34,146 nt of DNA from a virus (Duplodnaviria > Heunggongvirae > Uroviricota > Caudoviricetes): the IMG/VR virus record IMGVR_UViG_2541047954_000008, one strand, 5' to 3'. Made by a program: the position numbers and the translations under genes. Below are positions 17,764 to 18,073 of this stretch, one piece after another. Below the pieces are notes generated by a model. The model did not search any database. It worked only from the letters and a program-made list of their open reading frames with translations, and was not told the DNA's origin. The first letter of the stretch is position 1. Each line of letters opens with the position of its first letter.

Positions 17764-17838
17764 TGGAGCGGGCAGCGGGAATCGAACCCGCATCATCAGC
17801 TTGGAAGGCTGAGGTAATAGCCATTATACGATGCCCGC
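17764..17838 (-). tRNA. tRNA-Gly (anticodon UCC)
   Basis: Hand-folded cloverleaf: acceptor GCGGGCA, anticodon loop CUUCCAA, T-loop TTCGATT, encoded CCA. Confidence 0.75.
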
Positions 17839-17841
17839 ATA

Positions 17842-17917
17842 TGGTGCCGACTACCGGAATCGAACTGGTGACCTACTGATTACAAGTCAGTTGCTCTACC
17901 TACTGAGCTAAGTCGGC
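17842..17917 (-). tRNA. tRNA-Thr (anticodon UGU)
   Basis: Acceptor GCCGACU, anticodon stem ACUGA/UCAGU, loop CUUGUAA, encoded CCA; one T-stem mismatch. Confidence 0.7.
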
Positions 17918-17919
17918 AC

Positions 17920-17996
17920 TGGACCGCCACCGGGGACTCGAACCTCGCACACTCAACTTAAAGGGTTGACGCTCTTTCCTGATGAGCTAGTGGCGG
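17920..17996 (-). tRNA. tRNA-like gene, anticodon UUU (Lys) if canonical, with C at position 33
   Basis: Acceptor CCGCCAC/GTGGCGG, anticodon stem UCAAC/GUUGA, loop CCUUUAA, encoded CCA; noncanonical C33 and one T-stem mismatch. Confidence 0.5.
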
Positions 17997-17997
17997 T

Positions 17998-18073
17998 TGG
18001 TGGCCCTTGCTGGATTTGAACCAGCAACCTGGCGATTATGAGTCGCTCGCTCTCACCACTGAGCTAAAGGGCC
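17998..18073 (-). tRNA. tRNA with CAU anticodon (Ile2 lysidine-type or Met), ileX/ileZ-like
   Basis: Acceptor GGCCCUU, anticodon loop CUCAUAA, T-loop TTCAAAT, encoded CCA. Confidence 0.7.

Follow-up and report, generated by a model that had tools for sequence, protein, structure and literature searches.

The DNA analyzed here is the IMG/VR virus record IMGVR_UViG_2541047954_000008, a stretch of 34,146 nucleotides (nt) that is called the window in the following, and its positions 17764-18073 hold four adjoining tRNA genes on the minus strand. ARAGORN and the Rfam model RF00005 place the four genes at identical coordinates. In the direction of transcription, they are a gene with anticodon CAU, probably a tRNA-Ile2 of the ileZ type of Shiga toxin (Stx) phages (17998..18073; 72.5 bits), a gene with anticodon UUU that ARAGORN names tRNA-Lys(ttt) and that we call Lys* (17920..17996; 44.4 bits), a tRNA-Thr(UGU) (17842..17917; 73.8 bits), and a tRNA-Gly(UCC) (17764..17838; 64.9 bits). 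The gathering score of RF00005 is 29 bits, and the E-values of the array, 1.5e-14 to 1.9e-6 in the 34-kb window, are far beyond chance. The genes are separated by 1, 2, and 3 nt, and the CCA end is encoded in all of them. An earlier reading made from the letters alone (the sequence-only reading) had described this arrangement, the four anticodons, and, in the UUU gene, a C at position 33 and a mismatch in the T stem; the predictors and the sequence agree on all these points, and none of the cloverleaves is rejected. Minimum free energy (MFE) folding of the single tRNA sequences is uninformative, as genuine tRNAs likewise give no cloverleaf. The genes are already annotated in RefSeq, and, taken as a whole, the array is nothing unusual, a cluster of four tRNA genes in a lambdoid Escherichia coli prophage. 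Its second gene, Lys*, is an unreported variant member of this known kind of element, and a real, widespread, and conserved oddity.

The anticodon stem of Lys* (UCAAC/GUUGA) closes the loop C32-C33-U34-U35-U36-A37-A38, with C33 at position 17963 of the window and the anticodon at 17962-17960. Lys* thus lacks the U33 that characterizes the U-turn of tRNAs, whereas the other 68 distinct tRNA sequences found in 1.2 Mb of related DNA all have it. The anticodon arm has no alternative register with a canonical U33 loop, because the stem fixes a loop of 7 nt, on which ARAGORN and the Infernal alignment agree. The T stem (CGAGG/CCCCG) contains the A51xC63 mismatch (17945/17933), which is flagged by Infernal and is the only nonstandard pair in the four stems. 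The core positions of the molecule are kept (U8, A14, G18G19, A21, G53, T54-Psi55-C56, A58, and C61), and the gene further shows C16, A20, G39-U40-U41, the pair C1-G72, and U73.

Descent of Lys* from the host lysT can be discarded, as only 47 of 77 positions are identical, and Lys* has U73 in place of the discriminator A73 of lysT-type genes. On the other hand, its identity to argN-type tRNA-Arg genes from Stx phages and other lambdoid phages amounts to 80-90%, and it shares with them the oddities C1-G72, U15/G48, and U73. The argN family includes three classes of anticodon loop, CUUCGAA (Arg UCG), CUUCUAA (Arg UCU), and CCUUUAA. Its cloverleaf is well maintained, with 97.7% of stem cells paired and compensatory double changes at 7-66, 30-40, and 51-63. 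The last of these pairs alternates between A51xC63, A-U, G-U, and G-C within the family, and A51xC63 also occurs in the argN gene of the O157 Stx phage. Hence, the T-stem mismatch, which had been taken as a possible sign of a pseudogene, is a trait of the family and no mark of decay. The same goes for most of the low score of Lys*, as family members score between 43 and 56 bits. The suggestion that the UUU gene might be a pseudo-tRNA thus finds no support in these two traits. The allele of the window is accepted by the tRNA model with a score usual for the family, but two derived alleles are damaged (see following). Relative to the Arg(UCU) genes of the family, Lys* has U33C, C35U, and further changes, which leave the Arg identity set incomplete, with A20 kept and U at position 35. 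Comparison of the sequences makes it almost certain that Lys* descends from the phage argN tRNA-Arg family by an anticodon switch. Recruitment of tRNA genes to a new amino-acid specificity through a point mutation in the anticodon was reportedly described by Saks et al. in 1998; Lys* differs from that concept in residing in a phage operon and in having changed position 33 as well, and its function after the shift is putative.

The ileZ-argN-argO cluster of Stx phages (933W type) resembles the array of the window in lying downstream of Q and in having the same promoter layout. The first genes of the two arrays are one base apart, and the second ones are homologous (80-84% identity), sharing C1-G72, U73, U15/G48, and the variable 51-63 pair. 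In the window, however, the second gene has UUU and C33 instead of UCG, copies of thrU and glyT replace argO (UCU), the spacers measure 1-3 nt as opposed to 1-13 nt, and there is no toxin gene downstream. In the argN gene of the O157 Stx2 phage (L005:601-677) and the 95NR1/PPompW-type allele of the window's second gene (L002:601-676), the acceptor stem contains a G3.U70 wobble pair. This is the major alanine identity element, so that mischarging of those alleles by alanyl-tRNA synthetase is conceivable.

The diversity of the second slot was assessed with a scan anchored at the Thr-Gly junction, which is unbiased for that slot and gives 112 complete arrays. The slot holds the UUU/C33 gene in 41 arrays and an orthodox Arg(UCU) gene of the argN family in 14, whereas about 51 arrays consist only of Thr-Gly and 8 have degenerate relatives in the slot. 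The sister arrays Ile2-Arg(UCU)-Thr-Gly (e.g., L139, L143, L150) share with the window the architecture, an identical Thr-Gly junction, and the family of the slot-2 gene. This gene differs from Lys* by its orthodox loop CUUCUAA, by G73, and by some 11 substitutions, among which is a compensated 3-70 pair. An orthodox Arg(UCU) gene occupies slot 2 in these 14 arrays, and from this it follows that the four-gene array originally had readers for four rare codons, AUA, AGA/AGG, ACA, and GGA. Among complete genomes, the UUU/C33 allele is found in about 750 E. coli records, compared with 16 for the Arg(UCU) allele of the sister arrays (i.e., about 47 times more). It is present in about 14% of the genomes, in many mosaic phage backgrounds, and in isolated phages.

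The distinctive features of Lys* are very stable. C33 and UUU are invariant in the 41 arrays, where sampling is unbiased on Lys*, and only position 32 varies, in two singletons. Over 91 copies, there is no drift in the anticodon or at positions 33 and 37-38, and the four stem substitutions of the UUU class all keep or restore pairing. No single-step form, i.e., U33 with UUU or C33 with UCU, was found in IMG/VR, in metagenomes, or by exact match in 5,426 complete E. coli genomes. Among GTDB representative genomes, the argN-derived family is found, under our search pattern, only in E. coli and Shigella flexneri.

The degenerate relatives in slot 2 (L174:4540-4559, L179, L198, L207; L170:1744-1762, L182, L190, L205) include one that has the loop CAUUUAA (A33 next to UUU) and a changed T loop and lacks the CCA, and another whose anticodon region is aberrant and defies assignment by ARAGORN. 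The Thr-Gly pairs without Ile2 or slot 2 make up about half of the arrays (L146:7173-7190, L147, L152, and about 48 other loci). They have a TATTAT/TATCAT-like box followed by a conserved long hairpin leader, GGTTCTGAGGGG...CCCCTGAAGAACC, which stops 3 nt upstream of the Thr gene. In one sublineage, the thrU copy itself has turned into a UUU gene, with a canonical loop CUUUUAA (G35U and A26G, with A73) and the name tRNA-Lys in PGAP (L036:3513-3530, L054, L068, L072, L103, and six complete genomes, e.g., NZ_CP024232.1). The argN-derived UUU gene of these arrays carries U8C and G73. We considered this variant as a case of convergent selection for a Lys reader and rejected it, because it is confined to 5 viral loci and 6 complete genomes, which are probably of a single lineage. 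The frequency of the change is about the chance level given the 14 variable sites of Thr, and it is not used as evidence here.

Among the neighbors of Lys*, the CAU gene is identical to the ileX gene of K-12 at 67 of 76 positions. It has the pairs C4-G69 and C5-G68, which are determinants for TilS, and is named tRNA-Ile by PGAP. As proposed in the sequence-only reading, it is probably a tRNA-Ile2 that would read AUA once modified with lysidine. An A27xC43 mismatch tops its anticodon stem, where the host ileX has G27.U43, and this state is common to the ileZ genes of Stx phages. For Thr and Gly, the array carries perfect duplicates of host genes, with 76/76 positions identical to thrU and 75/75 identical to glyT of MG1655, and in both cases homology extends precisely to the 5′ and 3′ termini of the mature tRNA and no further. 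Compared with the MG1655 cluster thrU-tyrU-glyT-thrT (L127), tyrU and all the host spacers are missing from the array. The origin of these copies could lie in capture of the tRNA in its mature form or in several rounds of gene conversion that did not extend past the tRNA body.

The match between the array and codon usage was analyzed by comparing counts per 1000 codons between prophage genes and a sample of MG1655. AUA (6.3-12.7 in the prophage versus 2.5 in the sample), ACA (11.5-18.7 versus 5.5), and GGA (13.8-14.9 versus 6.1) are enriched 2-5 times in the prophage. The codons AGA (6.3-6.8 versus 1.2) and AGG (5.4-5.7 versus 0.7), read by the sister arrays, are enriched 5-8 times. In contrast, AAA is hardly different (35-41 versus 34), and its share of Lys codons is 0.67-0.71 in the prophage and 0.74 in the MG1655 sample. 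Three of the tRNAs thus match codons overused by the phage, and Ile2, the thrU copy, and the glyT copy would be the decoders of the enriched rare codons AUA, ACA, and GGA, respectively. This is not the case for Lys*: as AAA is not enriched and the host has at least five clustered lysT-type genes, the supply of codons leaves this gene unexplained. The sequence-only reading had proposed that all four tRNAs boost the A-ending codons of AT-rich phage or cargo genes. The part of that model that concerns AUA, ACA, and GGA is supported by our counts, and the open reading frame (ORF) just upstream of the array is indeed AT-rich (GC 0.38-0.45). However, AAA is flat, and the enrichment in rare codons concerns the whole prophage, is stronger in early than in late genes, and shows no preference for the cargo ORF. 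As an account of the four genes together, plain codon supply is thus most improbable.

What, then, would Lys* do? It presumably still folds and is processed as a tRNA, and would read AAA and AAG, possibly less efficiently than a tRNA with U33. Lys identity depends on the anticodon triplet and A73, and Arg identity on A20, C35, U/G36, and A/G73 (PMC9976931). Since Lys identity rests on the anticodon and the main anticodon determinant of arginyl-tRNA synthetase (ArgRS), C35, is lost, charging mainly by lysyl-tRNA synthetase (LysRS) would be the likelier outcome. A37 is expected to receive N6-threonylcarbamoyladenosine (t6A), because the 36-UAA-38 motif required for this modification in bacteria is intact, and U33 is not contacted base-specifically (PMC13276492). 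A natural C33 is found in the cytoplasmic elongator tRNA-Leu(GAG) of Saccharomyces cerevisiae, which is expressed and functional and in which C33 has little functional cost, its change to U having minor effects (PMC13492127). That case differs from Lys* in being eukaryotic, in having another anticodon, and in involving neither a mobile element nor an anticodon switch. On these grounds, we lean slightly toward a Lys* that still works as a reader of AAA/AAG.

Several observations weigh against this reading. U33 is almost universal, the bacterial literature links it to ribosome binding, and we know of no bacterial or phage elongator tRNA with C33 and a proven function. U73 fits neither the Lys (A73) nor the Arg (A/G73) identity set, and A20, the main determinant of E. 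coli ArgRS, is retained, which makes charging by LysRS uncertain. The anticodon switch cost the phage a reader of AGA/AGG, codons that its genes overuse. Lys* also has the highest nucleotide diversity of the four genes in the 41 arrays (0.017, as compared with 0.016 for Gly, 0.011 for Thr, and 0.003 for Ile2); a previous estimate of diversity was dropped as biased because the pattern used to collect the sequences fixed positions 21-62 of Lys*. Finally, two frequent sub-alleles are damaged, either by U8C (strain 042 type) or by a one-base deletion in the D stem (95NR1/PPompW type). These sub-alleles account for 13+5 of the 91 copies in the junction-anchored sample, plus all the copies of PPompW type, and they score <29 bits while the neighboring tRNAs score 57-72 bits.

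The replacement of U33, the loss of the AGA/AGG reader, the high diversity, and the damaged sub-alleles would fit a Lys* that is an inert relic. On this view, an Arg(UCU) tRNA was put out of action by either U33C or C35U, the other of these two loop mutations drifted in afterward, and nothing is decoded. Such a relic could persist because it has only 77 nt, lies 1-2 nt from useful genes, and serves as punctuation. The array would be transcribed as a single precursor, from which RNase P and 3′ trimming would have to yield four CCA-ended tRNAs despite spacers of 1-3 nt, and such spacing makes every cloverleaf a processing signal for its neighbor, a role that can be inferred here. The cloverleaf of Lys* would then steer the cuts of RNase P that free the 3′ end of Ile2 and set the 5′ end of Thr. 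The degenerate relatives in slot 2, one with the loop CAUUUAA and no CCA and another with an aberrant loop, point in the same direction. However, the allele of the window has U8, A14, G18G19, and A21 in place, with its T loop preserved and every stem intact apart from A51xC63, at the usual score of its family, and the stem substitutions of the UUU class spare pairing. The anticodon and the nearby positions 33 and 37-38 are free of drift, the allele is far more common than its Arg(UCU) sister and is present in inducible and isolated phages, and C33 is tolerated in yeast. A relic is therefore a serious possibility, though in our view a less probable one than a working reader of AAA/AAG. A different outcome of the switch would be altered decoding, either by mischarging, with ArgRS inserting Arg at AAA/AAG, or by a shift of register caused by C33, with UAA read through U35-U36-A37. 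The retention of A20, the position of U73 outside both identity sets, and the noncanonical loop would fit such an outcome. Yet C35, the other strong ArgRS determinant, is lost, and replacement of Lys by Arg across the proteome would probably be harmful, which is difficult to reconcile with the frequency of the allele among genomes. As to the register, the loop is a regular one of 7 nt, closed by C31-G39 and with two nt on either side of UUU, and both precedent and sequence signal for a shift are lacking; reading of UAA through a shifted anticodon was rejected for want of support in the sequence. Altered decoding in either form is thus quite improbable.

If Lys* works, the only adaptive role that we can propose is that of a spare tRNA-Lys that would go unrecognized by host nucleases directed at tRNA-Lys. 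The AriB nuclease of the PARIS system cuts between C40 and A41 (C40|A41) and depends on U39, A41, and U16; cleavage is lost or weakened with U39A, A41C, and U16C, and phage T5 evades it through variants of its own (PMC12409363). PrrC cuts 3′ of U33 (PMC2610378). By comparison of sequence, Lys* differs at all these mapped determinants, with C16, G39, U40, and U41 for AriB and C33 for PrrC. Accordingly altered in U16, U39, and A41, it would escape AriB, and PrrC would fail because the nucleotide at the scissile bond is C. U33C would then be an adaptive escape change tolerated by the ribosome, rather than damage. PARIS also restricts lambda (PMC9122126). Such a role, if true, would explain why UUU/C33 has displaced Arg(UCU) in E. 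coli prophages even though AAA is not a rare codon. There are, nevertheless, points on the other side. The Thr gene of the array, being identical to that of the host, keeps the AriB site UAAUC|A and U16; it remains an AriB substrate by sequence, and hence the array is no complete anti-PARIS kit. Moreover, a residue other than U at position 39 would be expected by chance in most foreign tRNA bodies. The literature on argN/ileZ and on the tolerance of PrrC for C33 provided nothing usable. That Lys* is kept because it resists nucleases is thus a tentative and rather doubtful proposition, and we regard as unlikely its more specific form, in which Lys* would be a counter-defense tRNA of temperate phages, serving as a spare tRNA-Lys(UUU) beyond the reach of both AriB and PrrC.

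Two known systems are instructive in this respect. Phage T5's tRNA-Lys(UUU), which acts against PARIS (PMC11464382, PMC12409363), resembles Lys* in its UUU anticodon, in a body unlike that of lysT, and in the absence of the AriB determinants (C16, non-U at 39, and non-A at 41). It differs from Lys* in keeping U33 and A73 and in belonging to a virulent phage with 23-24 tRNAs, whereas Lys* is derived from a tRNA-Arg, has C33 and U73, and is only putatively resistant. Phages 21, SfI, Sf6, and ST64T carry Asn(GUU)-Thr(UGU) downstream of Q, i.e., isoacceptors targeted by AriB in the lambdoid late-region slot, and the Asn(GUU) gene is not explained by codon use (PMC3636060). The Asn and Thr genes of these phages lack the UAAU motif at 36-39, and their Thr diverges from the host gene, in contrast with the host-identical Thr of the window, which keeps UAAUCA.

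The novelty of Lys* is thus that of a C33 tRNA with a Lys anticodon, derived from a phage tRNA-Arg and present in about one in seven E. coli genomes. Were it to decode, Lys* would count as a rare departure from the U33 rule among bacteria or phages, and as a clean case of an anticodon shift in nature. As it lacks every mapped determinant of both known E. coli tRNA-Lys nucleases, it offers a cheap and direct test case, and it bears on whether temperate phages, like T5, carry nuclease-proof tRNAs.

The genomic context of the array is that of a lambdoid prophage. Over the array, the window is 99.3% identical to avian pathogenic E. coli (APEC) O1, where the locus contains tail, head, terminase, and lysis genes, the four tRNAs, a hypothetical gene, Q, RusA, and hokD, and further on a replication/immunity region, dicB, an exonuclease, and an integrase, followed by a tRNA-Ser(CGA). 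In the window, the array is on the strand of Q, the holin, the lysozyme, and the structural genes, and the order is Q, a PR′-like promoter, a terminator, a membrane-protein ORF, the tRNAs, the holin, and the lysozyme. The antiterminator gene Q (annotated in the APEC O1 locus) lies at 19142-19837 on the minus strand, as do the following features. The PR′-like late promoter overlaps the 3′ end of Q (19130..19158; TTGCAA, 17 nt, TATATT). Downstream of it is a tR′-like intrinsic terminator, with a GC-rich stem of 7 bp and then a run of T (19057..19076). The AT-rich membrane-protein ORF (18199-18972) lies between this terminator and the promoter of the tRNAs, and the holin gene is found on the other side of the array (17470-17255). 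tRNA clusters downstream of Q are a textbook feature of lambdoid phages, the interval from Q to the lysis genes being their classical slot, and the position and strand of the array, between Q/PR′/tR′ and the lysis genes, are those of such a late-region module. Q would be needed to read through the tR′-like terminator toward the array and the lysis genes. In some related arrays, the same terminator is found directly before the tRNA promoter.

The array is preceded by a promoter of sigma-70 type on the minus strand, with a −35 hexamer TTGCAG (18106..18111), kept as TTGCRN among arrays, and a −10 hexamer TATTAT (18083..18088) at a fixed distance from the tRNA. A G+C-rich segment of 9 nt, TTCGCGCCC (18074..18082), separates the −10 hexamer from position 1 of the first tRNA. 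The layout TTGCRN, 17 nt, TATTAT, 9 nt, G1 is found in 109 of 121 arrays and in every architecture, including the ileZ-argN-argO of Stx phages, and the segment before the tRNA is conserved as CCTGCGCCC, TCTGCTCCC, or TTCGCGCCC. In contrast, the sequence of the 17-nt spacer has diverged, with at least five backgrounds. Conservation of hexamers over a diverged spacer is the mark of a working sigma-70 promoter, which indicates that the array has a promoter of its own. We infer that the segment TTCGCGCCC acts as a discriminator, and the distance from the −10 hexamer to the tRNA implies a very short 5′ leader. Judged from this pattern, the array is a transcription unit in its own right and not merely a part of the late transcript, although late transcription may read through it. 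The previous assignment of the array to the late transcript is thus correct as to orientation, but too simple. Transcription would start from the sigma-70-type promoter and probably also come from PR′ by Q-dependent read-through. With such a promoter, the tRNAs may be expressed in lysogens too, beyond late infection.

Downstream of the array, a structured trailer on the same strand (17600..17763) contains two long hairpins (MFE of −51.3 kcal/mol, z = −3.9 relative to shuffled sequences). It travels with the four-gene arrays, as its first 120 nt agree, base for base, with the window in 70-90% of 79 arrays. No canonical intrinsic terminator was detected in the trailer downstream of tRNA-Gly, but its second hairpin contains a run of nine T, and the trailer may be an element for 3′ processing or termination. 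Overall, the account of the array as a tRNA operon of a lambdoid prophage, with its own promoter and three decoders of rare codons, is very probable. When the origin of Lys* from argN and its continued work as a reader of AAA/AAG are added to this account, the balance is about even for the whole. The promoter of the array and the exact copies of thrU and glyT, trimmed at the tRNA ends, bear on how phages acquire tRNA genes and on constitutive expression in lysogens.

A few other features of the region were noted. In the Stx phage of O104:H4 (L006:844-1034), a member of the STnc100 family of small RNAs (140 bits) lies just 3′ of the tRNA array, and it has no counterpart at the equivalent position of the window. 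The product of the membrane-protein ORF at 18199-18972 is a multi-pass protein without matches in the local Pfam-A library or in PADLOC; its homologs across Enterobacteriaceae are all annotated as hypothetical and correspond to the precomputed family PF27470. At the other end of the prophage, a tRNA-Ser(CGA) (33166-33255, minus strand) adjoins an intact tyrosine-integrase ORF (32088-33113), which indicates serU as the attachment site; this integrase is open in the window and frameshifted in APEC O1. Two further RNAs were identified with Rfam, the antitoxin RNA sok (22512-22686, minus strand, 113.5 bits), next to the hokD homolog annotated in APEC O1, and the small RNA DicF (28689-28740, plus strand, 76.7 bits), next to dicB, both of which are typical of Qin/Rac-like lambdoid prophages.

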